The position numbers and the translations under genes were made by a program. This document shows, piece by piece, positions 36,308 to 64,000 of a stretch of DNA of 64,000 nucleotides. The stretch is from Candidatus Woesearchaeota archaeon (GTDB lineage: Archaea > Nanobdellota > Nanobdellia > SCGC-AAA011-G17 > JACPIM01), in the NCBI GenBank assembly GCA_964432435.1, contig CAYSNL010000001.1, positions 10,511 to 74,510 on the forward strand, given 5' to 3'. The number at the start of each line of letters is the position of its first letter. Position 1 is the stretch's first letter. Below the pieces are notes generated by a model, which saw only the letters and a list, made by a program, of their open reading frames with translations, made no database searches and had not been told where the DNA came from.

Positions 36308-36385
36308 GCAGCAATAGCTCAATTAGGTAGAGCAGATGTCTTATATACATCCAGGCTGAAGGTTCAAATCCTTCTTGCTGCACCA
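36308..36385 (+). tRNA. tRNA-Ile (anticodon UAU, reads AUA), with encoded CCA
   Basis: Acceptor GCAGCAA/TTGCTGC. D-arm GCTC-AATTAGGTA-GAGC. Anticodon arm GATGT-CTTATAT-ACATC. T-arm GAAGG-TTCAAAT-CCTTC. Discriminator A then CCA. Confidence 0.7.
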
Positions 36386-42384: not shown

Positions 42385-43249
42385 TTCTGCCTATACTGAG
42401 ATATTAAACATCTTAGATAAAGACGGATTTTTAAATAAGAGACGAAATGGAGAAGTAAAAGAATGCTATCATTTAATGATGTGTTTGTCTAATCCAAGAC
42501 ACAGAGTAATTCAAAATTCAAGCAGAAAGATAAGTCTATCAATGTTAGTCGGAGAATTTTTTTGGATTTTGTTTGGTAGAGATGATTTGGATTTTATATC
42601 CTTCTATAATTCAAAAATGATTGAATACTCCGATAATGGAAAGTCTTTATTTGGGGCATATGGAAAGCGTTTGACTAGTCAATGGTCTGGAGTTATAGAA
42701 AGAATCTTATCTGATAAACTAACTAGACAGGCAGTATTACCGATTATAGATAAAAGTGACTCTACGGCTATGACTAAAGATTTTCCATGTAATAATCTTC
42801 TTCATTTTTGGAGTCAAGACGGCACTAGTCTAAATTTAACCGTGTATATTAGATCTCAGGATATGTTTTTAGGATTTCCGTATGATGTTTTTCATTGGAC
42901 AATGTTTTTAGAGAACATGGCTATGACTTGTAATATGAGACTTGGGAAATACTATCATATAATGCAAAATTGTCATTATTACATTAAAGACTATGAAAAA
43001 GTTCAGTTGATAAAACAAGCTAATAGTTTTGTTAGTTTACCAATGAACTCTATATTAGAAAGTTGTTTTGATAAGTCTGTAGAAAATAGACTAATAGAAT
43101 CAGAATCAAAAACTCGGCAGAACGGGGTTTATGTAAACTTATTCGATGAAAAGTCAATTTGGTCAGACTTTATAAAAATAGTTCAGCATAGAAAAAGCAA
43201 TAAAAAAGTTTCTTTATTTGATGGAGCTTTAACTAATGTCTATAGATAG
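42362..43249 (+). CDS. ThyA-family pyrimidine C5-modifying enzyme, predicted deoxycytidylate hydroxymethylase
   Basis: Aligns with thymidylate synthase: FGAYGKRLTSQW (YGKQWRAW); DFPCNNLLHFW (APCHAFFQFY, catalytic Cys retained, PCH to PCN); RSQDMFLGFPYDVFHW (RSCDVFLGLPFNIASY). The substrate-specifying Asn is replaced by Asp, as in T4 dCMP hydroxymethylase. NCHYY (DTHLY). Confidence 0.65.
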   Translation: MLDFQSIDSAYTEILNILDKDGFLNKRRNGEVKECYHLMMCLSNPRHRVIQNSSRKISLSMLVGEFFWILFGRDDLDFISFYNSKMIEYSDNGKSLFGAYGKRLTSQWSGVIERILSDKLTRQAVLPIIDKSDSTAMTKDFPCNNLLHFWSQDGTSLNLTVYIRSQDMFLGFPYDVFHWTMFLENMAMTCNMRLGKYYHIMQNCHYYIKDYEKVQLIKQANSFVSLPMNSILESCFDKSVENRLIESESKTRQNGVYVNLFDEKSIWSDFIKIVQHRKSNKKVSLFDGALTNVYR

Positions 43250-43580
43250 ATTATTCAAAGATCAAGTTAGATTTACAGATAAGATCATTAATGATTTAAG
43301 TGTGAATGTATCTAAAACTGAGTTAATAAAAGAATATTTGCTGTCTTTGCATGATGAACTATCAGAAATTCTTCATTGCACAAATTGGAAATGGCATAGA
43401 GAAGATTACGGATCAGACATAGACTATGAGAATTTATATGTGGAATTAATAGACACACAAAAGTTTTTATGGGGGCTGATGCATATTTGTGGAATGGACA
43501 TAAATAAGTTTGAAGAAGTGTATGATAAGAAAAGTAAAATTGTAGAAGAGCGTTTAATGAAATTGAAAGGGAAACAATAG
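43236..43580 (+). CDS. MazG-like all-alpha NTP pyrophosphohydrolase (candidate dCTP/dUTP-clearing enzyme)
   Basis: 114 aa all-helical with acidic cluster (ELSEILHCTNWKWHREDYGSDIDYEN...ELIDTQKFLWGL); position between the ThyA-like gene and ThyX. Confidence 0.45.
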   Translation: MSIDRLFKDQVRFTDKIINDLSVNVSKTELIKEYLLSLHDELSEILHCTNWKWHREDYGSDIDYENLYVELIDTQKFLWGLMHICGMDINKFEEVYDKKSKIVEERLMKLKGKQ

Positions 43581-44363
43581 TTGAGTCAATTAATTCTACC
43601 TAAGGTATTCATCATAGGAGAGTCTAAGATTGATTCTGTTGGTTTGCAACAATTATTAAACCATTTGAGTGTTCCTGCATGGAAATCAGATGCTGACACC
43701 GATGTAGAAAAACTTCTGGAAGTCTATGGAAGGGCTTGCTATAAGTCATTTGATGTTATTCTAAATCCTAATTTAACTCGTGTAAGAAAGCACAATGATG
43801 AATACATAAAGAACATTATAGAAAAAGGAGACGGTAGTGTATTAGAACATGGTATGATTAATTTCTTTTTTGCTGATGTGAGTAGAGTTTTTACCCATGA
43901 GTTAGTTAGGCATCGTGTCGGAACAGCCATAAGTCAAGAGAGCTTAAGATTTGTTAGATTGACAGATTTGAACTGGTACGCCCCAATTTGTATTCAAGAG
44001 GATGTTCAGGCTATGGAGATTTTTTCAAGGACACTCAATAGTTTAAGTCAACTTCAAAAAGACTTGGCAGACCTATATAATATAGATAACATGTCTTTTG
44101 AGAAGAAAAAGGAATTAACTTCAGCTTTTAGACGTCTTGCCCCTGATGGGTTAGCTACAAATATCGGGTGGTCTGCAAATATTAGAACAATTAGACATGT
44201 ATTGGAGATGAGGACTAATCCCTCAGCTGAGGAAGAAATCCGATTAGTCTTTTCTCAAGTAGGAAAACTAATGAGGGAAAGATATAAGACGTTGTTTGAT
44301 GACTATGAGACCGAGATTGTTAATGGAATTGATTGGTACAAAACTAAACATAGAAAAGTATAA
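43581..44363 (+). CDS. thyX: Flavin-dependent thymidylate synthase ThyX
   Basis: ThyX signature RHR-x7/8-S: HELVRHRVGTAISQES; TTG start. Confidence 0.8.
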   Translation: MSQLILPKVFIIGESKIDSVGLQQLLNHLSVPAWKSDADTDVEKLLEVYGRACYKSFDVILNPNLTRVRKHNDEYIKNIIEKGDGSVLEHGMINFFFADVSRVFTHELVRHRVGTAISQESLRFVRLTDLNWYAPICIQEDVQAMEIFSRTLNSLSQLQKDLADLYNIDNMSFEKKKELTSAFRRLAPDGLATNIGWSANIRTIRHVLEMRTNPSAEEEIRLVFSQVGKLMRERYKTLFDDYETEIVNGIDWYKTKHRKV

Positions 44364-44375
44364 GGAGATCTAGAA

Positions 44376-44606
44376 TTGCAAGAGCCATTAAGTTTTGAAA
44401 AAATAATTACTGACTGTAGAGAGAAGCTGACTAAACTTCAAGCCACACTCGAGAGTGTACATCAAATAATATTGACCATATCTCAGTCTTATTACTGGAC
44501 TCCTGAATGGCAAGCCAAAGAGAAACGAGCAGACGAGGATGCTCGGGCTGGAAGGTCAAAACAGTTCAAATCTGCCGAAGAATTGATCAGGGAGTTGAAG
44601 TCATAG
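44376..44606 (+). CDS. Hypothetical small protein
   Basis: 76-aa ORF with GGAGA RBS. Confidence 0.35.
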   Translation: MQEPLSFEKIITDCREKLTKLQATLESVHQIILTISQSYYWTPEWQAKEKRADEDARAGRSKQFKSAEELIRELKS

Positions 44607-44766
44607 TCTATGCCCGAGTGGACATTGGGGAGCTCAGATGGCTTCAAGGCTGATTATAAGGCAAAGCCACCGATGTTCAGCCGAGGAAATATGAATAAGG
44701 CTCAAATGATTGATGATGTAGAAGATGCTATAAGCATTCTTATATGTGCTTTATTGAGGAATAACC

Positions 44767-45246
44767 ATGGTAAATAGACCTTCATGGGATGATTACTTCT
44801 TGGGGATTGCTAAAGTTGTAAGTAGCAGGGCTTCATGCCCTAGGGCAAGCTCAGGATGTGTTTTAGTTCTAGATAAGAGAATTTTGTCTACAGGTTATAA
44901 TGGGGCTCCTGTTGGAGAAAAGACGTGTTTAGATATAGGATGTAATGTAAAAGACAGACATTGTGTCAGGGCAGTACATGGCGAAAGAAATGCCATTTTG
45001 TGGGCTGAAAAATATTTTTCAGTAAAGCAACTAAAGGAAGCGACTTTGTACGAATACTATGCAGCTCATAGCGATGAATCAGTAAAGAATTATTATCCTT
45101 CTCAAGATTCTGTAGAGTCATTAGACTTTTTTCCGTGCAAACCATGTAAAGAATTGATGTTAGATAGAAAAATCAAAGAAGTAATTTGTCAATATGGGAA
45201 TGGAATTATAAAAGTCTATAAGAACTATCATATTGGAGAAAAGTAA
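44767..45246 (+). CDS. Deoxycytidylate (dCMP) deaminase
   Basis: HGERNAILWA (HAE-type zinc ligand motif) and FPCKPCKELM (PCxxC). Confidence 0.75.
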   Translation: MVNRPSWDDYFLGIAKVVSSRASCPRASSGCVLVLDKRILSTGYNGAPVGEKTCLDIGCNVKDRHCVRAVHGERNAILWAEKYFSVKQLKEATLYEYYAAHSDESVKNYYPSQDSVESLDFFPCKPCKELMLDRKIKEVICQYGNGIIKVYKNYHIGEK

Positions 45247-45390
45247 AATGGGAAATATTCAAGATTTATCTATTTATGATCCAGATATTTGGCTTAAGAT
45301 GTGTGTGACTTTAAAGATTGAGCTGCCAGACGAGGTTTGGAAAAAGTATATAGATGGCCTATATCCTAGTTTATTTTTTAGGGGGTAGAA

Positions 45391-45594
45391 ATGTCGCAAG
45401 CTTATAAGTGTGATATGTGTAAATGTTTATTTGATTATAGACCAACAAGAGAATTAGAGTTTTCAGAGCATTACGGGCCAGAGCCTGATGCTAAGAGAGT
45501 TCATGCAATAGCTGAAATGAGAGGTGATTATTGTAGAGATTGCTTAGCGGAGATTTTAAGAAATAAGATAAATTATTTGGGAAGACAAAAATGA
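45391..45594 (+). CDS. Small zinc-ribbon protein
   Basis: CDMCKC...CRDC. Confidence 0.35.
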   Translation: MSQAYKCDMCKCLFDYRPTRELEFSEHYGPEPDAKRVHAIAEMRGDYCRDCLAEILRNKINYLGRQK

Positions 45595-45658
45595 AAGAAA
45601 AGATTGGTAAAAAGCTAAATTTTGACCCATTATTCGGAGAAGACGGGGAGTAAATAAA

Positions 45659-45871
45659 TTGGCAAAAATTTCTCAGCAACTTTCTTTTACATTTAGAATC
45701 GGGGTAGATCAAAAAGGTCAATTTGCCAAAGTCACAGTACAAATTGATGAAATAGATACAGAATTACCAATAAAGGAGCAATTAGAGAAAGTTGATGGCG
45801 CTCTAGATAAAGTCTGGGCATACATAAAGAAGAAAGTTGATGCCCAGATAGATGAAGTATTAGATAATTGA
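45659..45871 (+). CDS. Hypothetical small protein
   Basis: 70-aa ORF; TGAATG junction with next gene. Confidence 0.35.
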   Translation: MAKISQQLSFTFRIGVDQKGQFAKVTVQIDEIDTELPIKEQLEKVDGALDKVWAYIKKKVDAQIDEVLDN

Positions 45872-46687
45872 ATGAAATCTTATTCTTTGTTAAATATAAC
45901 TGGGAATAAGAGAAGCATAGCAGACCAAATTTTTTCTATTTTACCATTAGATTGTTCAGGATTAACTTATGTTGATCCATTTTTTGGGTCTGGAGGAGCA
46001 TATTTCAATGTCTCAAGAAATTTTTTAAGCTATGAGTGTTCTGATTTATTTCCGCTTATTATAAATTTTATATGCCAAGATTTTTCAAATGAAATTTTAA
46101 GCGATTATTATAACAAAGTAACACAAAAATGGGACTTCCATAATAAAGATGCTTATTATAATTTTAGAGAATTTTGGAATGAAAATAGAGAAAAAGGTCC
46201 TAGAATTAAATATATAGGTTTTATGCTTTTAGCGGGAGCATGTATTAATGGTCTATATAGATTTGGCCCAAATGGTTTTAATCAGTCGTATGGAAATAGG
46301 ATAATGAAGAAAGAACAACTTTTAGACTATAAGAAACATATTAAGTCTAATAGTAGTTTTTCAATAAAGAATTTTTTAGACATAGTCCCGTCTAAAACTT
46401 CAGTATTGTATTTAGACCCCCCATATTCTGATACAGGGGCTTTAACTCAAATGTTTGGATTTTGGGAATTGGGTTTGGCGCAAGATTTAAATCTTATAAG
46501 ACTAATTAAGTCTCAAGATGAGTGTAACGGTAAGTTTATTCTTAGCACTATTAAAAATTCTTTTTTACATAATGAATTAAAAGACACATTTAGAAATATT
46601 GACATAAAGAAAACTTATAAAGTAAGTGTAGGAAAGCATTTAGCTTCGTCTCATGAAGAAATTATAGTTACAAATCTAGGAGATTAA
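45872..46687 (+). CDS. Dam-like N6-adenine DNA methyltransferase
   Basis: Motif I DPFFGSGGAYF and motif IV LYLDPPYSDT. Confidence 0.75.
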   Translation: MKSYSLLNITGNKRSIADQIFSILPLDCSGLTYVDPFFGSGGAYFNVSRNFLSYECSDLFPLIINFICQDFSNEILSDYYNKVTQKWDFHNKDAYYNFREFWNENREKGPRIKYIGFMLLAGACINGLYRFGPNGFNQSYGNRIMKKEQLLDYKKHIKSNSSFSIKNFLDIVPSKTSVLYLDPPYSDTGALTQMFGFWELGLAQDLNLIRLIKSQDECNGKFILSTIKNSFLHNELKDTFRNIDIKKTYKVSVGKHLASSHEEIIVTNLGD

Positions 46688-50815: not shown

Positions 50816-51343
50816 TTGGTTCAGCTAACCAATTGCAAGAGGCTGGACTTGAAGAAAGAGAGTAATTATTACATAGGCGTAGACTGTAGCTCCAAAAGCA
50901 TTCATTGCGTTAGTCTAAATGATAGTGCGAAGATAGCTTTCATAGCCTCATTTAAAACTGATAAAGAGGGTTTAGATGAGCGCATGTATATGTTATATGA
51001 TGATCTAATAAAGTTCGTTGAAGATAATTTATACATATTTAAGCATAAGGTTATTGTAGTAGTAGAAAATTCCATTTATATTCAGAATGTGAGAGCAACA
51101 ATTGGCATATCTCAAACGGTAGCAGCATCAAAGCTTGTGTTTAACAAATTTGGGGCTGCTGTTTTTGGGATTGACAATAAGTCCTGGAAAAAGGACGTAT
51201 TAGCTTCTGGTAAGGCAGAGAAAAGCTTGATAAAAAAATTTGCTCTTACAAAATGGCCAGATGATTTAAATGAAACAATGGATCAAGACTTTTTCGATGC
51301 AGCCTGTATAGCATATTACGGTTTTAGTAAGTTTGGTAAATAG
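50816..51343 (+). CDS. RuvC-like Holliday junction resolvase
   Basis: N-terminal YYIGVDCSSKS (first catalytic Asp strand) and C-terminal FFDAACIAYYG (RuvC D-AADA-A motif). Confidence 0.5.
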   Translation: MVQLTNCKRLDLKKESNYYIGVDCSSKSIHCVSLNDSAKIAFIASFKTDKEGLDERMYMLYDDLIKFVEDNLYIFKHKVIVVVENSIYIQNVRATIGISQTVAASKLVFNKFGAAVFGIDNKSWKKDVLASGKAEKSLIKKFALTKWPDDLNETMDQDFFDAACIAYYGFSKFGK

Positions 51344-51346: not shown

Positions 51347-52498
51347 ATGACTAGAATATTTATAACTTCAAAAGAATCAACACAGGCCCCGACTTTAGAG
51401 TCAGAAAATATTAAGCCAGTGATGATTGATATTTTTTCTCATAGACTGACGTCGTATAATGCATTTAATATGCAAAGAGCTCTTGCTATTGAAGATTTAG
51501 TGCGTAAATATAATAAATCTATTCATACAACAGAAGTTGTTTTGAGTCCTACTAATGAGATTAAATTTAATGATATTAATATAGTGAAACATGGGGCGGC
51601 AATTTATGCAGAGGATTTGCAGGGGTCGTCTATGATAAATTGCTTAATTTTTAAGAACCTAGAAGTTATTTCTATTAGTTTTGATATATATAGATTAACT
51701 AGCGCCGTTCGCTCAATAAGCATTACACATGTTGGAAAAAGAGATGAATGTCTTAAGTCTATTTTAGAATATTTTAATAGTTTAGGGTTTTCTACTGATT
51801 CTGGAAAAGATAATAAGACCACTGTCATATATGGATTTCCTGGGGAAAGAGGTCCCAGAACAGTGGCCAGGGATTTTATTAAATTACCATTTAAAGATAT
51901 TAGAAAAAACTATTCAATGGAGACTCAAAGTAAGATTGGTGTCTTGATTGCTCAATTAGCTGATGCCGCTGTAAAAAGTGGGATTGTTATTTTCAATGGG
52001 CCAGTTGGCACTGGGAAAAGCTATTTAATCAGATCATTATTGTCAGATTTATCAAGTCGTCAAAGCATTGTTTTGTCTCCCCCCGAATATTTTCTAAATG
52101 ATATTGGAATGATGCAATCAGTAATAGCTGAGTACCCCAAGTCATTTGTAATTTTGGAAGACTTGGGAGAAATGTTAGCTATTGATGGCAGCGCTAGAAG
52201 TGCTAGTATTACATCAAATTTATTGAACGCCACCTCAGGTCTCCTATCTTTACTGTCAGATACAATTTTTATTCTTACTTTCAATCATGACATAGGAAAG
52301 CTTAATCCTGCATTTTTGAGACCTGGGAGGTGTTTGGGAAAAATTGAAATTGGAAATTTGTCACTTGATTATGCTCAAACTTTGACTAAAGTAAAGTTAG
52401 TTAGACAATCTTATTCTTTAGCTGAAATATATGAAATTAATCGTACAGGAAAGGATATTGAAAATTTTTCTGATAAGGCTTTAGGACTTAAAAGATGA
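51347..52498 (+). CDS. AAA-type P-loop ATPase
   Basis: Walker A FNGPVGTGKSYLIRSL; Walker B-like VILEDLGE. Confidence 0.6.
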   Translation: MTRIFITSKESTQAPTLESENIKPVMIDIFSHRLTSYNAFNMQRALAIEDLVRKYNKSIHTTEVVLSPTNEIKFNDINIVKHGAAIYAEDLQGSSMINCLIFKNLEVISISFDIYRLTSAVRSISITHVGKRDECLKSILEYFNSLGFSTDSGKDNKTTVIYGFPGERGPRTVARDFIKLPFKDIRKNYSMETQSKIGVLIAQLADAAVKSGIVIFNGPVGTGKSYLIRSLLSDLSSRQSIVLSPPEYFLNDIGMMQSVIAEYPKSFVILEDLGEMLAIDGSARSASITSNLLNATSGLLSLLSDTIFILTFNHDIGKLNPAFLRPGRCLGKIEIGNLSLDYAQTLTKVKLVRQSYSLAEIYEINRTGKDIENFSDKALGLKR

Positions 52499-52926
52499 AA
52501 ACATGGTATTTATCATATAATAATAAAGACGAGTTTGAAATTAATATTGGGACAAAAAGTTTAATCTTGACATTTTTATCTGATATAATAGATTTTATAA
52601 ATCATAATGTTTTAAAGTATGTCCCGATGGTGCCATTTCCAATTATTCATTGGGGAAATTGGATTTGTGAAAACAAAAGGATACATTTTCACATGTCATA
52701 TAATTGGTATGGATGGAGCATTGGAGATATATTGTGTATGACTTTAGAAGGCTATTTGTTTAATAAGTCATTGGACAATGAGAGACAGATACTTAGTTTT
52801 AGTGTATCAGAGGAAGACTTAGCTAAATTTTATGGGAGAGATGCTGATTTTATTCAGGAGTGCAAAGAAAATGATAGAAACTATGTCCCCAACAAGTTTG
52901 GAAGTGCAAAAGAAAATAACAAATAG
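52495..52926 (+). CDS. Hypothetical protein
   Basis: 143-aa ORF; ATGA coupling with the ATPase gene. Confidence 0.45.
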   Translation: MKTWYLSYNNKDEFEINIGTKSLILTFLSDIIDFINHNVLKYVPMVPFPIIHWGNWICENKRIHFHMSYNWYGWSIGDILCMTLEGYLFNKSLDNERQILSFSVSEEDLAKFYGRDADFIQECKENDRNYVPNKFGSAKENNK

Positions 52927-53097
52927 TTGTGTAGTGCCTGAGTGCACCAGCAGACAAAGCAGGTCGAACAATAAAGTAGGATTATGTTTTAGGCACGCAG
53001 AATGGTTATACTTTTTGCTATGGGCTTTACCTAGAATTACATTAGAAAAACAAGCAGAATCAGGTTTGTGGACTCCTGAGAAGAAAGGATAGGAAAT

Positions 53098-54585
53098 ATG
53101 TATCAAGTCATCGGGAAAAATTATATAAATGGTCAATGGGTGGAGCTCAAGAATCATTTTTATTCATTAAATCCGTCTAATACAAATGAAGATATCGGGA
53201 TTTTTCCTCAGTCTGTATATTCTGAAGTAGATTTAGCTGTTGAGGCTGCAAAAGATGCCTTTAGATCTTGGAAAAGTTTGTCTAGAATTAATAGGGCGGA
53301 GTATTTTAATGCATTTGTAAAAAATGTGGAGAAAAATTTTGATGAACTTGTGCATTTAATGTGTAGGGAAAGCGGAAAACAAATAAATGAATGCAAAGCT
53401 GATGTAATTGAAGGGATTCATATGGCTCAATATAACTTTGGTAGAGCAAGGATGCCATATGGAGAAGTAATGGCATCAGAAATTGCTAGTAAGGATGCAT
53501 TTATGTTGCGAAAACCAAAAGGGGTAATCGCAGCAATAACTCCTTGGAATTTTCCGTTTGCTATTCCTTTATGGTTAATTATTCCATCTTTGCTAGAAGG
53601 AAACACTGTTGTATTCAAACCGTCAGAAGACACTCCTGCTGTAGGAGAATTTTTAGTTAAAATGTTTGATGAAGTTAGTTTACCCCCAGGAGTATTAAAT
53701 CTAGTTCAGGGAGATGGGGGGACTGGATGGGATTTAGTTACAAATACTGATATTAAGGTAGTGTTATTTACTGGCTCCTATGCTGTTGGGTCTAAAATTA
53801 GGAAAGAATGTGCTGGTTCTATAGACAAAATGGCAGTGTGCGAGATGGGCGGGAAAAACGCTATTATTGTGTTGGAAGATGCAGATTTGGATTTAGCAGT
53901 AAATGCATGCATTTTAAGTGCCTTCAAAACTGCTGGTCAAAGATGTGTATCTGCTTCCAGATTGATAGTTCATAGGTCTATTTTGAAAGAATTTGAGGAT
54001 AAATTTGTAAATAAGGCTAAAAATTTAATAGTTGGGGATCCTCTTGATTCAAGCACCTTTATGGGGCCAGTAATAAATCTAGAGGCTATTAATAAAATTT
54101 TGTCTTATAATGATATGGCTCGGAAAGAGGGTGTTGAAATATTATTAAATGGTTCCAGACTTGTAGAAGGGAAATATTGGGATGGGTATTTCATGTCTCC
54201 ATTTGTATATGAAACGGAAAATAGATTTTCTAAAGTCTTGAAGGAAGAGGTGTTTGGGCCTCATGTGGCTATTATCCCATTTGATACATTAGAAGATGCA
54301 GTCAGTCTATATAATAGTACTGATTATGGTTTTGCATTAGCTGTAATATCTAATGATTATCGTAAGATTAAATATTTACAGCAGAATTGTGATTTTGGAG
54401 TGGGATATGTAAATCTTCCCAGCATAGGCGCAGAAGTTCATTTGCCATTTGGTGGTACAAAGAAGAGTGGTTCTGGGATGCCTTCAGCCTCTGCTTTAAT
54501 TGATGCTGTAACACACAGAGTAGCCTGGACTGTTAACTATGCAGATGAAATTCAATTAGCCCAAGGATTAAATGCAAAGGTATGA
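53098..54585 (+). CDS. NAD(P)-dependent aldehyde dehydrogenase
   Basis: ALDH Glu site CEMGGKNAI, Cys site FKTAGQRCVSASR, cofactor-binding FTGSYAVGSKI, and WNFPFAIP. Confidence 0.9.
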   Translation: MYQVIGKNYINGQWVELKNHFYSLNPSNTNEDIGIFPQSVYSEVDLAVEAAKDAFRSWKSLSRINRAEYFNAFVKNVEKNFDELVHLMCRESGKQINECKADVIEGIHMAQYNFGRARMPYGEVMASEIASKDAFMLRKPKGVIAAITPWNFPFAIPLWLIIPSLLEGNTVVFKPSEDTPAVGEFLVKMFDEVSLPPGVLNLVQGDGGTGWDLVTNTDIKVVLFTGSYAVGSKIRKECAGSIDKMAVCEMGGKNAIIVLEDADLDLAVNACILSAFKTAGQRCVSASRLIVHRSILKEFEDKFVNKAKNLIVGDPLDSSTFMGPVINLEAINKILSYNDMARKEGVEILLNGSRLVEGKYWDGYFMSPFVYETENRFSKVLKEEVFGPHVAIIPFDTLEDAVSLYNSTDYGFALAVISNDYRKIKYLQQNCDFGVGYVNLPSIGAEVHLPFGGTKKSGSGMPSASALIDAVTHRVAWTVNYADEIQLAQGLNAKV

Positions 54586-54628
54586 AATGGATTTGTAGTA
54601 GTAGATTTATAGAACCGGAAGTATTTTA

Positions 54629-54865
54629 ATGATATGGCAAGATATTGTAATAATGATTGGCCAAGTCTTATTTTCAATTTCGTTAATTCCAATTTTGCGG
54701 GCTAAAACTAAGCCTCCAAAGTTTACGTGTTTTTTAACAGCCAGTATTTTAGGCAGTTTCTTTATAACATTTGGGACATTGTCTTTATGGATGTCAATGT
54801 TTTCATGTCTCCTAAATGGAACTTTATGGTGTTGGATAGGATTACAGAAAGGCATAAGAATATGA
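54629..54865 (+). CDS. Small integral membrane protein
   Basis: 78 aa, two hydrophobic helices; ATGA coupling to the HAD gene. Confidence 0.35.
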   Translation: MIWQDIVIMIGQVLFSISLIPILRAKTKPPKFTCFLTASILGSFFITFGTLSLWMSMFSCLLNGTLWCWIGLQKGIRI

Positions 54866-55419
54866 ATATAGCTATAGATATTGAAGGGACTGTTGCTGAT
54901 GTGCACGAAGCATTTTTACAATGGTTTAATACTAAGTATGACACTAATTTTACGATTAAAGATATTGACAATTGGAATATAGCAAAGACAAAATTAGGAA
55001 TAACAACATCAGAGTTTATTGAATCTCTTAGAAAGCTATGGAAACAACAATGCACTATGACTTTGACAGATAGTAATATCCCAAAGATAATTGATAGGTT
55101 AATAGATTCAGGGCATAGAATTTATTTTGTGACTGCTCATTATGAGGTCGCGCCACAAATTATTGATTGGATTAATAAGAATAGACTAAAACATTCGGGC
55201 TTCATGGCTGTAAAGAATACAGAAGTAAAGAAGATTCTTTCATTTGATTTATTTATTGATGATTGCCCATTATTAGTGGAATCTTTAGGGCACCGACTTT
55301 TTTTATATAATAGACCATATAATACAAATACAAAAGCTATTAATCGTTTTACTGATTTTTCAGAATTAACTAATCGAATAAACATGTGGCCAAGGAGGGG
55401 AGAGAATGAAAGCTTGTAA
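54862..55419 (+). CDS. HAD-superfamily phosphatase / 5'(3')-deoxyribonucleotidase-like
   Basis: N-terminal DxDxT motif MNIAIDIEGTV. Start set to the ATG at 54862 rather than the track start 54727. Confidence 0.55.
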   Translation: MNIAIDIEGTVADVHEAFLQWFNTKYDTNFTIKDIDNWNIAKTKLGITTSEFIESLRKLWKQQCTMTLTDSNIPKIIDRLIDSGHRIYFVTAHYEVAPQIIDWINKNRLKHSGFMAVKNTEVKKILSFDLFIDDCPLLVESLGHRLFLYNRPYNTNTKAINRFTDFSELTNRINMWPRRGENESL

Positions 55420-55801
55420 GACTGAGATAAATATTAGCTGTGAGTGCTCAGGAGATAGTTGTTCATTGAAGGCATTGGAATCCTATCGAAAATTCATTTG
55501 GTGTGATGCTGTAGATTGTGTTTGGAATATGAATCCCTTACCCTTTAAGAAATATGTTCAAGTTAATGATAATTTTAAGTCCTTGCCTAATGATAATGTC
55601 AAGGGATTATGCACCAGGCAAGAAATTAGATTAACAGCTAGAGAAGTTGAGACATTGCGTGTTAAACATAAATTAGCAGGTTGTGCAGTTCGAAGTGATA
55701 AAAGAATAACAGGTCATATGGATTGGGGAAAGTTTCCTGAAGGGGGGAACATCCCAGATCCAGTTGATCCTGCTATTGGTGGTTCTGAGTTATTAGGATA
55801 G
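55406..55801 (+). CDS. Cys-rich hypothetical protein
   Basis: 131-aa ORF. Confidence 0.4.
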   Translation: MKACKTEINISCECSGDSCSLKALESYRKFIWCDAVDCVWNMNPLPFKKYVQVNDNFKSLPNDNVKGLCTRQEIRLTAREVETLRVKHKLAGCAVRSDKRITGHMDWGKFPEGGNIPDPVDPAIGGSELLG

Positions 55802-55802: not shown

Positions 55803-56315
55803 ATGTCTGACGATTACACAGAAGATCAAAGAAAATTCGCTTTAGATTTATACCTAGACGGCATGACAGCCGTGAAAATTGCTCGTAGGTTTTCTAGTGA
55901 GTATAATTCTTTGATTAGGGCATCAACAATTACTCAATGGATCAATAAATATGAATGGAAGAATATTAGAGCAGAATTGCGTAATCAAGCTATTGCAGAA
56001 ATAATGCAAAGAAACAAAAGCTCTCTTATTAAGACTTCTGAAGAGCATGCTAAGACATACCGAAAATTGTGGAAAAAGGGGGAGGAAGCCCTAGAAAGAG
56101 AAAAAAGTCCTGCTAAAATTCTTGACCCAAGCGATGCTATAAAAGCAATAGATGCGGGAATACAGGGAGAGAGGAAAGTAATTTTAGGCATTGTTAATAT
56201 GAAATTTGTTCAGGATGTCTTAGGGGTAATTGTAGAAGAAGTTAACGATCAAACTGTATTAAACAAAATAGCTATTAGGCTGAAAAAACTAGCTTCAGAA
56301 ATGATGGAAGGTTAA
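55803..56315 (+). CDS. Putative terminase small subunit (HTH DNA-binding)
   Basis: HTH-like N-terminus (DLYLDGMTAVKIARRF) and position directly upstream of the large terminase gene. Confidence 0.4.
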   Translation: MSDDYTEDQRKFALDLYLDGMTAVKIARRFSSEYNSLIRASTITQWINKYEWKNIRAELRNQAIAEIMQRNKSSLIKTSEEHAKTYRKLWKKGEEALEREKSPAKILDPSDAIKAIDAGIQGERKVILGIVNMKFVQDVLGVIVEEVNDQTVLNKIAIRLKKLASEMMEG

Positions 56316-56495: not shown

Positions 56496-58121
56496 GTGTC
56501 CCAATCTCTTTTGACATACAAACAAGCACTAACTAATCTAGCTGATAGTTTATTAACTAGAGACGAAAAGTCCATCAAAATAGGTGGATTTTATGAATTT
56601 GTAAGGGATATTTGGTCTAAAAGTTATGAGCATCCTGAGCGTTTCAAGATGTTCCACATCGAAGTAATATGCCATGATGTAGAAGAAGCATTAGCTACTG
56701 GTAAAAATTATGTTTGTGTTCTTCCTCGAGGGTTTTTAAAGTCAACGGTGCCTGGATATGCTTTTTGTATTTGGCGTTTATTGAAAATGGGAAATTCAGA
56801 CAGTACAATTCTTTATACATCATTTTCAGATGGGATGAGTCAATACCATATATCTGAAATGAAGAAACATATAAGGCGTAATCCAATTCTTTCTGAATGG
56901 ATGATAGACAGGAGTCCAAATGCTGACTTTTCATTTAGATATTCTGTAAATGGATTCCAAAAGAATATTTTACATGGTGGGGTTTTGTCATTCAAAAGAG
57001 GGACCCACGTAGATGGGGCAGTGGTGGCGGATGATCTCTTACAGGACCCAGATAATCCAGCCAGGCCTACAGAGATATTAAAGGTTGAAGAATTTTTCTT
57101 TTCAGAGACAATGTATATTCCTAATCCAGGAGTGCCAGTCTTTGTATTAGGGACTCCCTTATTACCGGACGATCTATTATCAAAGCTTAAAAAAGATGAT
57201 CGTTTTTTGTATCGTTTTATGCCGGCCTTAGACCCAATTCCAGGAAGAAGAGTTTTAGCCCCAGAAATTAGAGATGAAGCCCAGTTGTTAAGAGAAAAAG
57301 CTGCAAGACCTCACGCTTTTGCAGCAGAAATGATGCTATCTCCTATGTCTTCTGTGAAGGGATATTTTACTGATACTGATATTAGTAGATGTGAAAATAA
57401 AGATTTAGCATCATTTGATCCATACAAAGAATGGGATTTTAACAGTGAGTTTACAGTTGCTGGGTTTGATGTGGGAAAAAAGAGGCACCCCTCTCATCTA
57501 GCTGTTTATGCAAGTAAAGGAGGTGTACTGAAACAAGTTCATCAAGTATTTCTAGATGGATGGGATTATAATATTCAAAAAGAATATTTAAATACAGTAG
57601 CCAAAAATTTTGCTCTTGATGTAGGATACTATGACAGCACCAGAGGAGAATTAGACGATAGGGGGCTAGATTCTAGGTGGAAGTCATTAAATTTTACCTT
57701 GAAAGACAAGAGAAAAATGGCCCAGGTGTTTGAAGAATTTGTTCAATCAGGAAATTTATCTCTTATTGTTGATGAACGTCAAAAATCGCAAATATTGGCA
57801 GTGGATAATGACTTAGATGCAGCAGAGAGTCCGCTCGGGCATGGAGATTCATTTTGGTCTAATGCTTTAGCATTATTAGCATACAAAGACAAGACAACAG
57901 TTGGGACGCAAGATGTTGGAAATGTTCAGGATATATTTGGAAACGATAAGACTAAAGAAAATATTAATTTTAAAGAATTTGTGCAACCAATAAATTTAGG
58001 CACAGGATGCCCTAATTGTAAAGAATTTGTAGGCTGGATAGAAGAAAGAAAATTATGCTTGATTTGCCAGCATAGATGTAATGATAATTGTATTCATACT
58101 GGAGAGAAAAATGGGGGCTAA
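56496..58121 (+). CDS. Terminase large subunit
   Basis: Deviant Walker A of terminases (VCVLPRGFLKSTV), acidic nuclease-like C-terminal half; GTG start. Confidence 0.55.
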   Translation: MSQSLLTYKQALTNLADSLLTRDEKSIKIGGFYEFVRDIWSKSYEHPERFKMFHIEVICHDVEEALATGKNYVCVLPRGFLKSTVPGYAFCIWRLLKMGNSDSTILYTSFSDGMSQYHISEMKKHIRRNPILSEWMIDRSPNADFSFRYSVNGFQKNILHGGVLSFKRGTHVDGAVVADDLLQDPDNPARPTEILKVEEFFFSETMYIPNPGVPVFVLGTPLLPDDLLSKLKKDDRFLYRFMPALDPIPGRRVLAPEIRDEAQLLREKAARPHAFAAEMMLSPMSSVKGYFTDTDISRCENKDLASFDPYKEWDFNSEFTVAGFDVGKKRHPSHLAVYASKGGVLKQVHQVFLDGWDYNIQKEYLNTVAKNFALDVGYYDSTRGELDDRGLDSRWKSLNFTLKDKRKMAQVFEEFVQSGNLSLIVDERQKSQILAVDNDLDAAESPLGHGDSFWSNALALLAYKDKTTVGTQDVGNVQDIFGNDKTKENINFKEFVQPINLGTGCPNCKEFVGWIEERKLCLICQHRCNDNCIHTGEKNGG

Positions 58122-60354
58122 TTTAACACCACAAGCAAAATATATTTTAGAGCAAAGATATTTAAGACGAGATGAGAATGGAGACATTATTGAAACTCCA
58201 GAACAATTGTTTGAACGAGTGGCAAGGGCAGTCTCTAATGGAGAGCCAATAGAGAGTGACAGACAAATATATTTTCAAAGATTTTATGACTTAATGACTT
58301 CATTGAAATTTTTGCCTAATTCTCCTACATTGGTAAATGCTGGAGTAGAAGGAAAAGGTTGCCTAAGCGCATGTTTTGTTTGCTCCCCCGAAGAAGACAC
58401 GATGGAGTCAATTTTACAAACACAGAAAGATTGGGGGATGATAGAGAAATGGGGTGGCGGAGTAGGAATAGGCTTAAGCATTATTAGGCCAAAAGGTGAC
58501 AGAATCAGTACCACTCACGGAAAGGCATTAGGGCCAGTAGCAATAATGCATATGTTGTCTACAAATGCAAAGCATATAACACAGGGCAGCTTTCGTCTCG
58601 GGGCCCATATGGCTCAATTAGCTGTTTCTCACAATGATATTTTTGAGTTTATCCACTGTAAAGACAAAGATGATACATTAGAGAATTTCAATATTAGTGT
58701 ACAGATAACTGATGAGTTTATGCAGGCCTTAGAAAAAGGGGAGGACTGGCATTTAGTGAATTCTAAAAACAATGAAGTAATGCAGACAATTCCAGCCAAA
58801 CAATTATGGCAGGAAATATGCGGGTCTGCTTGGAAAACAGGAGATCCAGGAGTAGTATTCATAGACCGGGTATGGGAAACAGCCCCAAATCCACAATTAG
58901 GGGGGATTCAGACGAGCAATCCCTGCGGGGAGGAATTTCTTGAAAATTACTCAAATTGTTGTCTCGGTTCCATAGATTTAAGTAAATTTGTTATTGAGGG
59001 AAAGTTTGACTTTGAGGATTTTGATAGAGTAGTTTATTTAGCAATTAGATTTTTAAATGATGTAATTGAAGTTAATACATTCCCAATTCCCCATTTACGT
59101 GAAATGAACTTGAAGACTAGGCGTATTGGTTTGGGAGTAATGGGGTTTGCCGATGCATTGATAAAATTAGGGCTGCCATATGACAGCGAAGCTGCATTAG
59201 GAATGGCTAGATTGATAGGAAAAAAACTAAAAAATTCAGCATGGTTAGAATCTTTTAGATTGGCTGATGAAAGAGGGGCATATTCTGAGTATAAAAATTC
59301 TAGCCTCAAGTATGAATTTAAAAATAAGCCAGTTAGAAATTCTAGTGTCATAACCATAGCTCCTACAGGCACGATTTCGAGATTGGCTAATTGTTCCAGC
59401 GGCATAGAGCCGTGTTTTGATTTAGCTTATTGGTCTAATATTTTATGGACAGATCATGATGGGAAAAGCACTAAATTTCTTGATGTCCCATCTAGTGTGA
59501 AAGACGTACTAGAACGAGATTGGGGGGCGGAGAAAGTTAATGAAATTTTAATAGCTATTGCTAATAATCCAGAGAAAACCCGAGCAATTCTGAAAGCATA
59601 TTATGGAATTAATGCAGACATATTTAGAACAGCAATGGAAATATCTCCTGAATGGCATGTAAAAATGCAGGCGGCATGGCAGGAGAATGTAACAAATTCT
59701 GTATCCAAGACAATAAATCTTCCAGAAGATGCTACTGTAAATGATGTATCCGAGGCTTTTAAATTAGCTTGGGAATTGAAGTGCAAAGCTGTGACTGTAT
59801 ATAGGGACAAATCAAAGTCTATGCAAGTATTAAATAAGGCAGAAGGACTTAGTGAATTAGTAAAAGTTATAGACAATATAAAGCTAGTTGTCAAAGACAG
59901 GCCTGCGGTAATGACTGGAGTTACTGAAAAAGTAAAGACTGGGCACGGAAATGCTTATGTAACAATCAATTTTGAAGGTACAGACCCATTTGAATTATTT
60001 ACTACGTTGGGGAAAGCTGGGGGCTGTGACTCGGCAAATTTAGAAGCAATATCTAGATTAGTATCATTAGCTTTTAGATATGGAATTGATACAAAAGAAG
60101 TAATTGCACAGCTAAAAGGCATTACTTGCTGCCCAGTATGGAATGAAGGCACAATGATAAAATCAACGGCAGATGGAATAGCATATGCAATATCTAAAAA
60201 TGTATTAAAAGAGGATGAAATAAGTTATAATAATAAAATAGGTGGGTCTATAGAGAAAAATGGGCATTTAGTATGCATACAGTGTGGAGGAGAATTGATT
60301 CGTAAAGAAGGTTGCATTGTTTGTAAAGATTGCTCTTGGACTCGTTGTGAGTAA
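58111..60354 (+). CDS. nrdJ: Ribonucleotide reductase catalytic subunit (class II-like, adenosylcobalamin-type) with C-terminal zinc ribbon
   Basis: Active-site loop SNPCGEEFL; N-terminal LEQRYL. C-terminal CIQCGGEL...CIVCKDC zinc ribbon. Start moved to ATG at 58111 with GGAGAG RBS. Confidence 0.8.
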   Translation: MGANLTPQAKYILEQRYLRRDENGDIIETPEQLFERVARAVSNGEPIESDRQIYFQRFYDLMTSLKFLPNSPTLVNAGVEGKGCLSACFVCSPEEDTMESILQTQKDWGMIEKWGGGVGIGLSIIRPKGDRISTTHGKALGPVAIMHMLSTNAKHITQGSFRLGAHMAQLAVSHNDIFEFIHCKDKDDTLENFNISVQITDEFMQALEKGEDWHLVNSKNNEVMQTIPAKQLWQEICGSAWKTGDPGVVFIDRVWETAPNPQLGGIQTSNPCGEEFLENYSNCCLGSIDLSKFVIEGKFDFEDFDRVVYLAIRFLNDVIEVNTFPIPHLREMNLKTRRIGLGVMGFADALIKLGLPYDSEAALGMARLIGKKLKNSAWLESFRLADERGAYSEYKNSSLKYEFKNKPVRNSSVITIAPTGTISRLANCSSGIEPCFDLAYWSNILWTDHDGKSTKFLDVPSSVKDVLERDWGAEKVNEILIAIANNPEKTRAILKAYYGINADIFRTAMEISPEWHVKMQAAWQENVTNSVSKTINLPEDATVNDVSEAFKLAWELKCKAVTVYRDKSKSMQVLNKAEGLSELVKVIDNIKLVVKDRPAVMTGVTEKVKTGHGNAYVTINFEGTDPFELFTTLGKAGGCDSANLEAISRLVSLAFRYGIDTKEVIAQLKGITCCPVWNEGTMIKSTADGIAYAISKNVLKEDEISYNNKIGGSIEKNGHLVCIQCGGELIRKEGCIVCKDCSWTRCE

Positions 60355-61162: not shown

Positions 61163-63082
61163 TTGAAAATATCAGAATATCTTCCAGAGTTACCTGGTCT
61201 AATGCAGCAAGAGCAAAGATTAACTTCTCTTGCTGATCAATTGTCTCTAATAAAAGCTGATTCAGATACATATCGTGCCCCGTCCCTTGGCCTCGATACA
61301 ATTATAAATACCTGGCTTAGAAATCAGTTAGTATATCGCCAAAATATGATGACTGATTTAATGAGAATTTCTAAAACTATAGAAGAAATACGAGCGCCGA
61401 TTCATCATATAACTGCCGAAGTATTTCGTAGGGGTATTTCATGGAAGCCAAAATTCGCTGTTAAGTGCCAGGAATGCCAGACAGAATATAATGATGTCAT
61501 GAAAGAATGTCCTAAATGTCATTCTACAGACCTAATATCTCCAGATGAAGGACAGAAGAAAAAATTAGAAAGTTTTCTTATTGACTGTAACATATTTGAT
61601 AATAGTTTAGAAGAAGTTTTAAGACAGTTTAATTATGACTTAAATGCACTTGATGATGCATTCCTGTATCTCGTTAAAGAATACATGGCTGCTGAAGACG
61701 GAAAAATTAGATCTAAAGTAATCGAAGTGAGGCGATTGGATCCAGCCTTTATGGAGTTTGATTTAGATCCACAAGGTCTTCCTAAGAATAAGTCATTTCT
61801 TTGTTATATTCATAGAGATATAAATGTAGCCACAACTCCTGGGGCTTGTATTGAATGTGGCAGAACATTAGTCCCAGCAATGTATAAATACTATCACAGA
61901 AATAAGCCGATGTATTTGCTTGATACTGAAGTGATACATTCTTCAAAATTTGACCCGAGCGAAACTTACGGTTGGAGCCCCATATTAACTATTTTTGAAA
62001 AGGCAATGACTATTATCGGCATGGATCGTAATATGTATCGTTATTTCTTTGAGCGCAAAATGCCTGCAGGGATGATAATGGTGTTTACGGATAACCCAGA
62101 GAGTCTTATAAAAGAACGGGCAGAGTTAGCCTTAAAGACTAGACAAGACCCAAATTATATTCCAATGGTTGCTGTATCGTCTAAAGGAAATCGTGGAAGA
62201 GTGGACTTTGTAAAGTTATTTCATACATTACAAGAAATGGACTATATGCCTGTAAGAAATGAAATAAGAGAGAGAATAGCATCTATGTGGGGAGTTACCC
62301 CAGCTTGGCAAGGTGCCCCAGATGCATTTGGTGGTATTTCAAATCAGACACAACAATTAACAGTGATGTCTCGTGTAGTAGAAACAGATCAGAGATTATT
62401 TCACGATAAAGTTTTTCCTAGAATTATGGATTCATTTGGAATAACTGATTGGGAGTTAGAGCTTCCCATACCAGAAGAGAAAGCAGAAGCTACCAGAATT
62501 TCATTTGCTCAGCAAAAAATTAGTGCAGCAAATATGCTTCTCCAAATGGGCTTTGATGTAAAGGCTAAATCTCAGGAAGTCGGATTAATTGATATTGATT
62601 TTGTAGTATCTGGTGAAGCAAAGAAGATAGATTATAGTTCAATGATGGGTGGAGGACAAGGGGGACTAGGTGGAATGGGGGGAGAAGGACTGCCAGGAGG
62701 GATTCCTGGATTAGAATTACCTGAAGAAGAGCAACCAAGTCAAAACCAATCACAGCAATACCCTGAACAAGGTTTGAGACTAATGGAAAAAGCACACGGA
62801 TGGGCAGACCAGATATTAAAAGCTGGATATTTTCCGATGATAAAACAAGTAAATCCAGTTGGGCCTGTGATTTGGTTTACTCAAAATAATACTGATTATG
62901 TGGCTAAGTTTGATAATAATATTTTGAAGGATATAAGTAAGGCAATCTTTCCCCGACTTCATGCACATGACGGTCGTCCTCCTCATGATCCAAATATTCC
63001 CCATAATACAGTAGATAGAAAATTACAGAGTGACAGCAAGATTTTCGAAGCAGAAGAGCCAGACGAAGTTGATAATGAATAG
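61163..63082 (+). CDS. Candidate portal protein (639 aa) with inserted zinc ribbon and Gly-rich acidic C-terminus
   Basis: Size and position downstream of terminase genes. CQECQ...CPKC ribbon. C-terminal GGGQGGLGGMGGEG then acidic tail. Confidence 0.4.
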   Translation: MKISEYLPELPGLMQQEQRLTSLADQLSLIKADSDTYRAPSLGLDTIINTWLRNQLVYRQNMMTDLMRISKTIEEIRAPIHHITAEVFRRGISWKPKFAVKCQECQTEYNDVMKECPKCHSTDLISPDEGQKKKLESFLIDCNIFDNSLEEVLRQFNYDLNALDDAFLYLVKEYMAAEDGKIRSKVIEVRRLDPAFMEFDLDPQGLPKNKSFLCYIHRDINVATTPGACIECGRTLVPAMYKYYHRNKPMYLLDTEVIHSSKFDPSETYGWSPILTIFEKAMTIIGMDRNMYRYFFERKMPAGMIMVFTDNPESLIKERAELALKTRQDPNYIPMVAVSSKGNRGRVDFVKLFHTLQEMDYMPVRNEIRERIASMWGVTPAWQGAPDAFGGISNQTQQLTVMSRVVETDQRLFHDKVFPRIMDSFGITDWELELPIPEEKAEATRISFAQQKISAANMLLQMGFDVKAKSQEVGLIDIDFVVSGEAKKIDYSSMMGGGQGGLGGMGGEGLPGGIPGLELPEEEQPSQNQSQQYPEQGLRLMEKAHGWADQILKAGYFPMIKQVNPVGPVIWFTQNNTDYVAKFDNNILKDISKAIFPRLHAHDGRPPHDPNIPHNTVDRKLQSDSKIFEAEEPDEVDNE

Positions 63083-64000
63083 TTGTGAATGTGGTTGTGG
63101 TATAGAGTGTAAGAAGAGATTTGTTCATAATCATCAGAAAAGGAATGTTCATTTATCTGTTGAACACAAAATAAAACTTAGGTTGGCTGGATTGGGAAGA
63201 AAACAGTCTAAAGAGACAATTGAGAAGAGAGTTGCTAAGATAAGAGGAATAGCATGTTCTGAAAATACTAAAAGCAAAATTAGCGAGACATTAAAGAAAT
63301 ATGAAATTACTAAGGTTCATCGGGATGCTCTTTCTAAGTCTAAATATGGGAGGGTATTGAGCGAAGAGCATAAAAATGCTATTAGATTAAATCGTCCAGA
63401 TTTTTCAGGTAATAAACATCCGATGTATGGCAAGCATCACTCAGAATCTACTAGAATTAAAATGTCTTTGTCTCAAAAAGGAAAGAAACATTTATATGCA
63501 TATAAGTTTTCAGAAAAAGATAAAGTTAAAATATCTATAGCTAGAAAAAGTAAGAAATTATCGGAGCATCATATTGAAGCACTGAAAAAGTCTTGGAATA
63601 ACCCAGAAGTAGCAGCTAGAAGATTATTTAGTATTTTAAGAAGTAATTTTAATAGACCCAATAAATCAGAAACAAGGTTGTCTTTACTTTTATCAGATTT
63701 AAATACAGACTTTAAATATGTTGGCAACGGAAGTTTTATTATTGATCATAAAAATCCAGACTTTGTAAATAAAGAATCTAAGAAAATAATTGAGTTACAA
63801 GGTTGTTACTGGCATGGCTGCAAAATTTGTTTCCCAAATTCTAAGAAATCAAATAATTTTCCAGATCGTCAACAAATTTTTAAACCTGCTGGATATGATT
63901 CAATAGAAATCTGGGAGCATGAATTGAAGAGTCCAGAAGTAGTAATTAGCAAAGTTAAGGATTTTAATAGTTTAGATGAAATTGAAAAGGCATGTAAAGA
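63075..64000 (+). CDS. Homing-endonuclease-like protein with NUMOD3 repeats and Vsr-like PD-(D/E)xK domain (3' partial, runs off window)
   Basis: ATG at 63075 overlaps the portal stop (ATGAATAG). Repeated EEHKxKI/ESTRIKMS NUMOD3-like helices. C-terminal IIDHKNP...ELQGCYWHGC resembles Vsr DGCFWHGH. Confidence 0.55.
   Translation, partial: MNSCECGCGIECKKRFVHNHQKRNVHLSVEHKIKLRLAGLGRKQSKETIEKRVAKIRGIACSENTKSKISETLKKYEITKVHRDALSKSKYGRVLSEEHKNAIRLNRPDFSGNKHPMYGKHHSESTRIKMSLSQKGKKHLYAYKFSEKDKVKISIARKSKKLSEHHIEALKKSWNNPEVAARRLFSILRSNFNRPNKSETRLSLLLSDLNTDFKYVGNGSFIIDHKNPDFVNKESKKIIELQGCYWHGCKICFPNSKKSNNFPDRQQIFKPAGYDSIEIWEHELKSPEVVISKVKDFNSLDEIEKACK

Follow-up and report, generated by a model that had tools for sequence, protein, structure and literature searches.

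An intact, lineage-specific aldehyde dehydrogenase gene in a variable slot of a tailed groundwater phage and its predicted place in semialdehyde oxidation

The 64-kb window analysed here (the whole stretch of contig CAYSNL010000001.1 under study) derives from a tailed phage and carries, close to the terminase genes, an open reading frame (ORF) for a 495-residue protein of the aldehyde dehydrogenase (ALDH) family. This gene is intact and under purifying selection, is resident in the phage, and represents lineage-specific cargo in a hypervariable slot between the genes for a RuvC-like resolvase and orf131 rather than a part of the phage backbone. Our preferred explanation, to which we give a probability of roughly 0.55, is that of a functional auxiliary metabolic gene (AMG), namely a horizontally captured ALDH of bacterial type that is maintained in the cargo slot by selection and that would oxidise a semialdehyde at the pyrroline-5-carboxylate (P5C) node of amino-acid catabolism.

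The phage ALDH is complete and conserved

The protein matched the Pfam family Aldedh (PF00171) with an E-value of 3.1e-135 and a score of 451.7 bits against a cutoff of 23, its residues 15-472 spanning positions 2-456 of the 461 positions of the model. Its motifs lined up with those of spinach betaine-aldehyde dehydrogenase (BADH) and comprised PWNFP at residues 149-153, with the oxyanion residue Asn151; KPSE at 174-177, with the cofactor-binding residues Lys174 and Glu177; the GSxxxG cofactor loop FTGSYAVG at 224-231; EMGGK at 249-253, with the general base Glu249; GQRC at 280-283, with the nucleophile Cys283; EEVFGP at 383-388; and PFGGTKKSG at 450-458. The claim of the original prediction that every catalytic and cofactor motif of the family is present was thus borne out. 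Glu177 occupies the position that we take to be equivalent to Glu195 of ALDH2, which suggests NAD+ as the probable cofactor. A Shine-Dalgarno-like AAGGA precedes the ATG start codon on its 5′ side.

To gauge the integrity of the protein, invariant columns were defined as those at least 97% conserved among 119 cellular homologues. The phage ALDH retained 117 of the 117 columns so defined, cellular members of the family losing a median of one and a maximum of five, and the gene was free of frameshifts. The earlier view that it encodes an active enzyme rather than a remnant therefore holds as far as intactness is concerned, the activity itself being predicted. The GC content at third codon positions (GC3) was 0.25 in the phage gene, compared to 0.66-0.82 in its nearest bacterial homologues, and the cosine of its codon usage to that of the other phage genes was 0.956, placing it third, from high to low, of the 12 long genes compared. 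In a neighbour-joining tree, its terminal branch measured 0.187 versus a median of 0.079, a difference of approximately 2.4-fold. Taken together, the phage-like composition, the retention of all invariant columns and the long branch indicate that the gene has long been under purifying selection in phage or host genomes of low GC content. The evidence thus favours long residence, or a low-GC donor, over a recent passive pickup.

The gene is flanked by viral genes on both sides, with those for RuvC, RecA, PolA and the tail tube upstream, and those for the large terminase subunit (TerL), ribonucleotide reductase (RNR) and the portal protein downstream. Three Logan assemblies from separate sequencing runs (SRR12113430, -420 and -384) were 100% identical to the window over all junctions, so that a chimeric assembly is excluded as the source of the arrangement; the same identity makes a dN/dS analysis of population variants impossible. 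Run SRR12113430 belongs to BioProject PRJNA640378, from Northern California groundwater (He et al. 2021). A 100% identical ALDH protein is present in NCBI under the label 'Candidatus Daviesbacteria bacterium', on a contig of ~110 kb (P0001). This label is that of a phage contig binned into a metagenome-assembled genome (MAG) of the candidate phyla radiation (CPR); it reflects binning and demonstrates neither host nor integration. A phage genome of ~110 kb filed under such a name can make a CPR genome look metabolically richer than it is, and host-linking by BLAST of viral contigs against MAGs would inherit the Daviesbacteria label.

The ALDH gene lies in a slot whose content varies between related phages

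The related phages available for comparison were eight IMG/VR contigs (L011-L018) whose TerL proteins are ~55% identical to that of the window. The gene order common to them was RecA-orf242-orf217-RuvC-[slot]-orf131-TerS-TerL-RNR-orf168-portal. A homologue of the RuvC-like resolvase at the left boundary of the slot, 38% identical, was found in L013, L014 and L018, and homologues of orf131, at the right boundary, lay directly upstream of TerS in L012, L013, L014, L017 and L018 (33-38% identity). Between these boundaries, L013 and L014 each harbour a single gene for a 279-residue protein (5127-5966 in L013), and L018 carries a canonical HAD gene (MKIALDIDRVLADF, DxDxV) together with one for a 278-residue protein (8169-9005). 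The slot content of the window, consisting of genes for an AAA+ ATPase, orf143, a Cys-rich ORF, the ALDH, a 78-residue ORF and an NT5C-like protein, was found in this phage only; the ALDH was absent from all of L011-L018, and the AAA+ ATPase had no counterpart in the related phages by tblastn and none in viral contigs. As the original prediction had stated, the ALDH block lies just upstream of the terminase genes, with only orf131 in between.

Two further observations concern the slots of the relatives. The canonical HAD gene of L018 sits where the window has its NT5C-like gene, and the 278/279-residue slot protein carries the motif 'GNSGGGLF', which recalls serine proteases of the trypsin type. 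A defence or counter-defence role for the slot genes was considered and dropped, as PADLOC gave nothing meaningful: there was no match for the ALDH, the 78-residue ORF, the NT5C-like protein, orf143 or orf131, and only a marginal P-loop match for the AAA+ protein. A mobile cassette was likewise discarded, the flanking repeats being no longer than chance-length matches and no RNA family being detected.

Some cellular relatives of the phage ALDH adjoin genes of amino-acid catabolism

Thousands of homologues with 57-67% identity to the phage ALDH were found in Chloroflexi, Nitrospirota, NC10 and Planctomycetota, with 99% coverage for the top 119, and more distant ones (46-50% identity) in haloarchaea and Armatimonadota. 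No solved structure was closer to the phage protein than the ~35-38% identity class. In the neighbour-joining tree of the top matches, the phage ALDH occupied a basal or marginal position in the cellular clade. The phylogenetic placement that had been proposed as a means of predicting the substrate thus put it within a cellular clade, one that is uncurated and assigns no substrate. The best NCBIfam model was that of the alpha-ketoglutarate semialdehyde dehydrogenase (KGSADH) GucD (NF042993), at 393.9 bits against a cutoff of 770, followed by haloarchaeal 2,5-dioxovalerate dehydrogenase (NF052305; 358 bits, cutoff 750) and the canonical P5C dehydrogenase (P5CDH) models TIGR01237 (323.9 versus 659.65) and PRK03137 (333.7 versus 648). 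The model for the acetaldehyde dehydrogenase ExaC gave 268 bits, much below the semialdehyde dehydrogenase models. Cellular members of the clade scored 363-422 bits on the GucD model and fell short of all cutoffs tried; since neither they nor the phage ALDH reach any equivalog cutoff, the clade is to be regarded as uncurated.

Function was read instead from the gene neighbourhoods of 86 cellular loci of the clade. Fifteen haloarchaeal loci had a monofunctional proline dehydrogenase gene (Pfam Pro_dh, E=3.6e-31) within 5 kb of the ALDH gene; in 13 of these, the distance was no more than about 2 kb, with the proline dehydrogenase gene usually upstream. A class-III aminotransferase gene (Aminotran_3, E=6e-121) was directly downstream of the ALDH gene in 10 loci, nine labelled Planctomycetota and one Alcaligenaceae (L026). 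Genes for ArgZ-like and/or DDAH-like arginine dihydrolases adjoined it in four loci (two from Chloroflexi and one each from Nitrospirota and Planctomycetota), a P5C reductase gene was directly upstream in a Nitrospiria locus, and a GltB-type GXGXG domain was encoded upstream of the closest homologue (67% identity). These neighbouring enzymes make or use glutamate-gamma-semialdehyde/P5C, which points to an acidic semialdehyde as the probable substrate of the ALDH. We regard the neighbourhoods as moderate guilt-by-association evidence, and not as proof, for a substrate of the P5C type. The ArgZ/DDAH linkage was rejected as a family-wide rule, as it holds in only 4 of the 86 loci, and is retained as one context among several that converge.

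The same survey yielded an observation in its own right. Split ArgZ/AgrE-like genes, encoding a Saccharop_dh_N/ArgZ-like_C protein and a DDAH-like guanidino-modifying enzyme, cluster with the ALDH gene in Nitrospiria, Chloroflexi and one planctomycete (L021 736-5300, L007 3507-6060, L025 and L037), in Nitrospiria together with the P5C reductase gene, and this suggests a previously undescribed route from arginine to glutamate outside cyanobacteria at these loci.

Proposed role of the phage ALDH and its alternatives

In the explanation that we propose, an NAD(P)+-dependent ALDH of bacterial type would have been captured by horizontal transfer into the slot between RuvC and orf131/TerS of a tailed groundwater phage of ~110 kb, and selection would have maintained it since then. 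The neighbourhoods of its clade would place the enzyme in the catabolism of proline, ornithine and arginine, at the glutamate-gamma-semialdehyde/P5C node, with succinate semialdehyde and alpha-ketoglutarate semialdehyde as alternative, chemically similar substrates. During infection, the semialdehyde would be oxidised to glutamate (or to succinate or 2-oxoglutarate) with formation of NAD(P)H, and the payoff could consist in the removal of a reactive aldehyde and in nitrogen, carbon and reducing power for a nucleotide-hungry infected cell. The parts of this account that we infer are the substrate, the physiological benefit and the host. Glutamate-gamma-semialdehyde/P5C as the specific substrate is a tentative assignment, to which we would give somewhat less than an even chance. 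Unlikely, in our estimate, is the more specific scenario of a minimal CPR/Patescibacteriota host devoid of the enzyme, to which the phage would supply a non-canonical P5CDH that converts scavenged proline, ornithine or arginine to glutamate and NADH; if true, it would provide the first viral AMG for that branch of amino-acid catabolism and a function for a large uncharacterised ALDH clade.

Several points weigh against the proposed role. No curated model assigns a substrate to the ALDH, and the long terminal branch leaves room for a shift in specificity at non-invariant residues of the pocket. The neighbourhood associations are phylogenetically clustered, amount to ~3 independent ones and do not occur in the majority of the 86 loci, and the aminotransferase partner is equally compatible with succinate semialdehyde. 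Proline dehydrogenase, ornithine aminotransferase and arginine dihydrolase were not recognised among the scanned proteins of the window, and the host link to Daviesbacteria comes from binning alone.

A different role would be that of a broad-specificity ALDH serving generic aldehyde detoxification, or the conversion of acetaldehyde to acetate in the pyruvate/acetate fermentation of a Patescibacteriota host. It agrees with a 2025 survey of PRJNA640378, in which ALDH figures as an AMG of groundwater Patescibacteriota phages and is assigned to pyruvate/acetate metabolism (PMC12911398), and with the JGI label of clade members, which reads just 'aldehyde dehydrogenase (NAD+)'; that neither the phage ALDH nor its clade reaches an equivalog cutoff is compatible with broad specificity as well, and on IMG/VR contig L001 a more distant ALDH gene follows that of a glyoxalase-fold protein, in keeping with a detoxification theme. 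The acetate assignment, however, rests on a generic KEGG-type label, whereas the cellular neighbourhoods of the clade point to semialdehydes derived from amino acids and the ExaC model scores far under those of semialdehyde dehydrogenases. We therefore consider this role improbable, if less so than the two that follow. One of these is a neutral passenger, that is, a recent host gene without a role in infection that is bound to decay. Lineage specificity, absence from the nearest related phages and location in a variable slot are what one may cite in its favour, but composition and codon usage are fully phage-like, which speaks against a recent origin from the lineages of the nearest homologues, and the gene keeps all invariant residues despite its long branch, is free of frameshifts and has the same sequence in three samples. 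Conservation thus largely refutes this reading, to which we assign a very small probability and which resembles the recent, non-functional host insertion that the original prediction had named as its refutation.

The other, equally improbable, is one that the original prediction had raised, namely that the ALDH, the small membrane protein encoded downstream and the HAD nucleotidase form a module handling a sugar, nucleotide or formyl intermediate of DNA modification. The phage does carry a candidate modification and nucleotide block (ThyA-like, ThyX, dCMP deaminase, Dam, GT1-like and UDG-like proteins), this block and the ALDH block are both absent from the related phages seen and co-occur in one lineage, and there is little space between the three genes, the membrane ORF and the HAD gene overlapping in an ATGA. 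Yet the ALDH gene lies ~10 kb from the modification block with RecA, RuvC and other genes in between, the joint presence of two blocks in just one lineage is statistically uninformative, and the ALDH keeps every invariant residue of a clade associated with amino-acid catabolism. The ALDH displays no homology to known modification enzymes, and we know of no described DNA-hypermodification pathway that uses an ALDH. The proposed link to DNA modification is thus unsupported, the cellular clade members lying in amino-acid catabolic neighbourhoods. So is the functional unit itself: ALDH, 78-residue ORF and HAD were found together nowhere else, homologues of the 78-residue protein occur without ALDH or HAD in the contexts examined, NT5C-like proteins were never seen next to an ALDH among the remote relatives examined, other viral ALDH genes have unrelated neighbours, and the slots of the related phages lack an ALDH. 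This evidence argues against a module and for the 78-residue protein and the NT5C-type nucleotidase as separate cargo genes that are no obligate partners of the ALDH.

Genes downstream of the ALDH

The genes of the block lie on the same strand with gaps of +43, -4 and -14 nt, and neither promoter-like nor terminator-like sites were found in its intergenic gaps, the counts of promoter- and terminator-like sites being near the expectation from shuffled sequence. The co-transcription claimed earlier is consistent with these data, although all long ORFs of the window are on the plus strand anyway.

The small membrane protein proposed by the original prediction is real, with three hydrophobic segments and a sizeable family: an exhaustive phmmer search retrieved 491 clusters (50% identity) at E<=1e-3 and 25 at <=1e-10, with the signature MxWQD..G..ALIP..R..KPP..TS..W..Q. 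Neither the protein nor 54 of its homologues matched Pfam, and a search of 5.8 billion proteins for close homologues returned self-matches only. A three-segment transporter of the SemiSWEET/PQ-loop (MtN3) type was considered and rejected, given the lack of a Pfam match and an empty Foldseek search against the PDB with a weak model (predicted template-modelling score, pTM, of 0.46). In one case, the contig is phage-like and the homologue lies two genes downstream of a gene for an SLT lytic transglycosylase; other homologues occur in clusters of tiny ORFs, and a further one, in a bacterial context, lies next to genes for peptide deformylase, DAG kinase and PAP2. Given the homologue near an SLT lysozyme-like gene, it is conceivable that the 78-residue protein is holin-like. 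A few members of 210-240 residues contain two copies, and the family occurs in both phage-like and bacterial settings.

The HAD protein that follows is of the NT5C type, matching PF06941 with E=3.8e-9 and 37.1 bits versus a cutoff of 24.8 (model positions 2-173 of 180) as well as phrog_420 (E=4.5e-13). The assignment as a HAD phosphatase made by the original prediction therefore stands, whereas its DxDxT motif does not: motif I reads D6-I-E8-G-T10 (DxExT) and departs from the canonical DxDx[TV] in its second Asp. In a shallow alignment of four sequences, which included annotated phage deoxyribonucleotidases, we located the Thr of motif II (FVTAH), the Lys of motif III (KKIL) and motif IV (FIDD, with Asp133-Asp134 invariant). 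Glu at the +2 position of motif I is also found in Haloarcula virus HVTV-2 (DLESV), which identifies DxEx[TV] as a natural, recurrent variant, and it is plausible from sequence that the protein is enzymatically active despite its DxExT motif. Like the phage deoxyribonucleotidases of Bacillus phage Bobb (AII28104) and HVTV-2 (gp36), it has the nucleophile Asp, the Thr of motif II and the DD of motif IV, its identity to them being only 22-26%. Close homologues were limited to self-matches in the search of 5.8 billion proteins, and a PDB sequence search was empty. Its start is likely the ATG at 54862, in an ATGA overlap with the stop codon of the 78-residue ORF, rather than the GTG at 54727.

Other features of the window

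All long ORFs (at least 170 residues) of the window are on the plus strand (Table 1). After the genes for structural proteins and tRNAs, the window encodes, in order, an SNF2 helicase, DnaB, a primase, a GT1-like protein, a UDG-like protein and PolA, which is followed by a low-scoring ThyA-like protein, ThyX, dCMP deaminase, Dam, RecA and RuvC, and then by the slot genes (AAA-orf143-ALDH-78aa-NT5C), orf131, a TerS-like protein, TerL, a class II RNR and the portal protein. The genes around PolA make up a candidate nucleotide/base-modification block (38314-46687). The ThyA-like protein scored only 71.6 bits on PF00303 and may be a pyrimidine hydroxymethylase instead of a genuine thymidylate synthase; in L013 and L018, PolA is followed directly by RecA, without the ThyA-like/ThyX block. 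Within the slot, orf143 matched neither Pfam nor PHROG, and gene calls on identical contigs include both small ORFs upstream of the ALDH.

Cys-rich, zinc-ribbon-like elements recur in this region, in the ORF at 52832-53092 just upstream of the ALDH, in orf131 and in the CxxC-rich C-terminal tail of TerL (~58000-58121). The class II (B12-type) RNR has a C-terminal TSCPD domain, and its placement between TerL and portal is unusual, yet kept in every related phage contig (L011-L018). On the 3′ side of the portal gene (63075-64000 and beyond; L002 19978-21488) are encoded a NUMOD3-domain protein and a 679-residue protein with DUF192 and ADP-ribosylating exotoxin domains, both assigned from precomputed Pfam matches on an identical contig.

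Table 1 Features of the 64-kb window and their coordinates
Feature	Coordinates	Strand	Evidence or remark
Tail tube and large structural proteins	about 1-25 kb		
Four tRNAs (His-GTG, Leu-TAA, Met-CAT, Ile-TAT)	26458-26662, 35847-35920, 36308-36385		
GT1-like protein	38314-39513		
UDG-like protein	39501-40436		
ThyA-like protein	42362-43249		
ThyX	43581-44363		
dCMP deaminase	44767-45246		
Dam	45872-46687		
RuvC-like resolvase	50816-51343	+	PHROG 1770/159, Holliday junction resolvase; left slot boundary
AAA+ ATPase, 383 residues	51347-52498	+	Pfam AAA, E=1.6e-8; first cargo gene of the RuvC-orf131 slot
Two small slot ORFs	52495-53092	+	orf143 (143 residues, 52495-52926) and a Cys-rich ORF of 73-86 residues ending at 53092
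ALDH, 495 residues, predicted NAD(P)+-dependent	53098-54585	+	Pfam PF00171
Small membrane protein, 78 residues	54629-54865	+	Three hydrophobic segments (hydropathy)
NT5C-type HAD phosphatase, putative 5′(3′)-deoxyribonucleotidase, 185 residues	54862-55419	+	Pfam PF06941
orf131, Cys-rich	55406-55801	+	Right slot boundary, directly upstream of the TerS-like gene
TerS-like gene	55803-56315		
TerL	56496-58121		PHROG 38, E=1.9e-28
Class II RNR	58081-60354		

Comparison with other viral ALDHs and with characterised enzymes

The earlier statement that ALDHs are rare in phages is broadly right: 81 of 50,697 phage records gave a match, and many of the matches listed have the appearance of bacterial contigs submitted as phage sequence. 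The PHROG collection includes an ALDH family (phrog_15577, E=5.8e-87). The ALDH of LR756511, a 595-kb uncultured huge phage, is 49.6% identical to that of the window and keeps 105 of the 117 clade-invariant columns, and that of IMG/VR contig 3300030116_006740 is 45% identical. Both belong to the same broad group but fall outside the tight clade of the phage ALDH, to which they are less similar than bacterial proteins are, and their neighbours are unlike those in the window (VWA/OmpA-like in one, GT25/PMM/glyoxalase-fold in the other); we therefore consider them independent acquisitions. The 'ALDH' of Vibrio phage NF was rejected as a precedent, the ORF being only 77 residues long.

The significance of the finding should be stated with restraint, as it opens no long-standing question and reveals no new kind of system. 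If the substrate prediction is true, viral auxiliary metabolism would extend to the proline/arginine-to-glutamate node, and a widespread uncurated ALDH clade of Chloroflexi, Nitrospirota, NC10, Planctomycetota and haloarchaea would gain its first functional handle. The finding is also a warning not to equate viral 'ALDH (NAD+)' annotations with acetate or xenobiotic metabolism. A literature search returned no paper pairing P5CDH with viral AMGs.

Among characterised enzymes, GucD/YcbD and the members of NF052305 share fold, length and motifs with the phage ALDH, and their substrate, an acidic C5 semialdehyde, is in keeping with the class predicted for the phage enzyme. In contrast to their members, the phage ALDH scores about half the cutoffs of these models, and the neighbourhoods of clade members showed no genes for sugar-acid or pentose oxidation. 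With P5CDHs of the RocA/PutA type it would share the predicted reaction, its clade then representing a non-canonical, analogous P5CDH. As an AMG, the gene has published counterparts: DRAM-v treats ALDH as a known AMG, an ALDH with hallmark genes on either side has been described in a soil virus (PMC9038774), and the groundwater phages of PMC12911398 come from the same environment and BioProject as the phage of the window, the supplement text of that survey containing no ALDH entry by which the presence of this exact gene in its list could be confirmed. Like the gene described here, the published examples encode full-length ALDHs of host type with viral hallmarks on both sides. The class of viral ALDH AMGs is thus already established; its published members were assigned from generic labels (chlorobenzene degradation and acetate metabolism), whereas the ALDH of this phage is resolved to a clade, and it is this clade-level resolution, together with an alternative substrate prediction, that is new.

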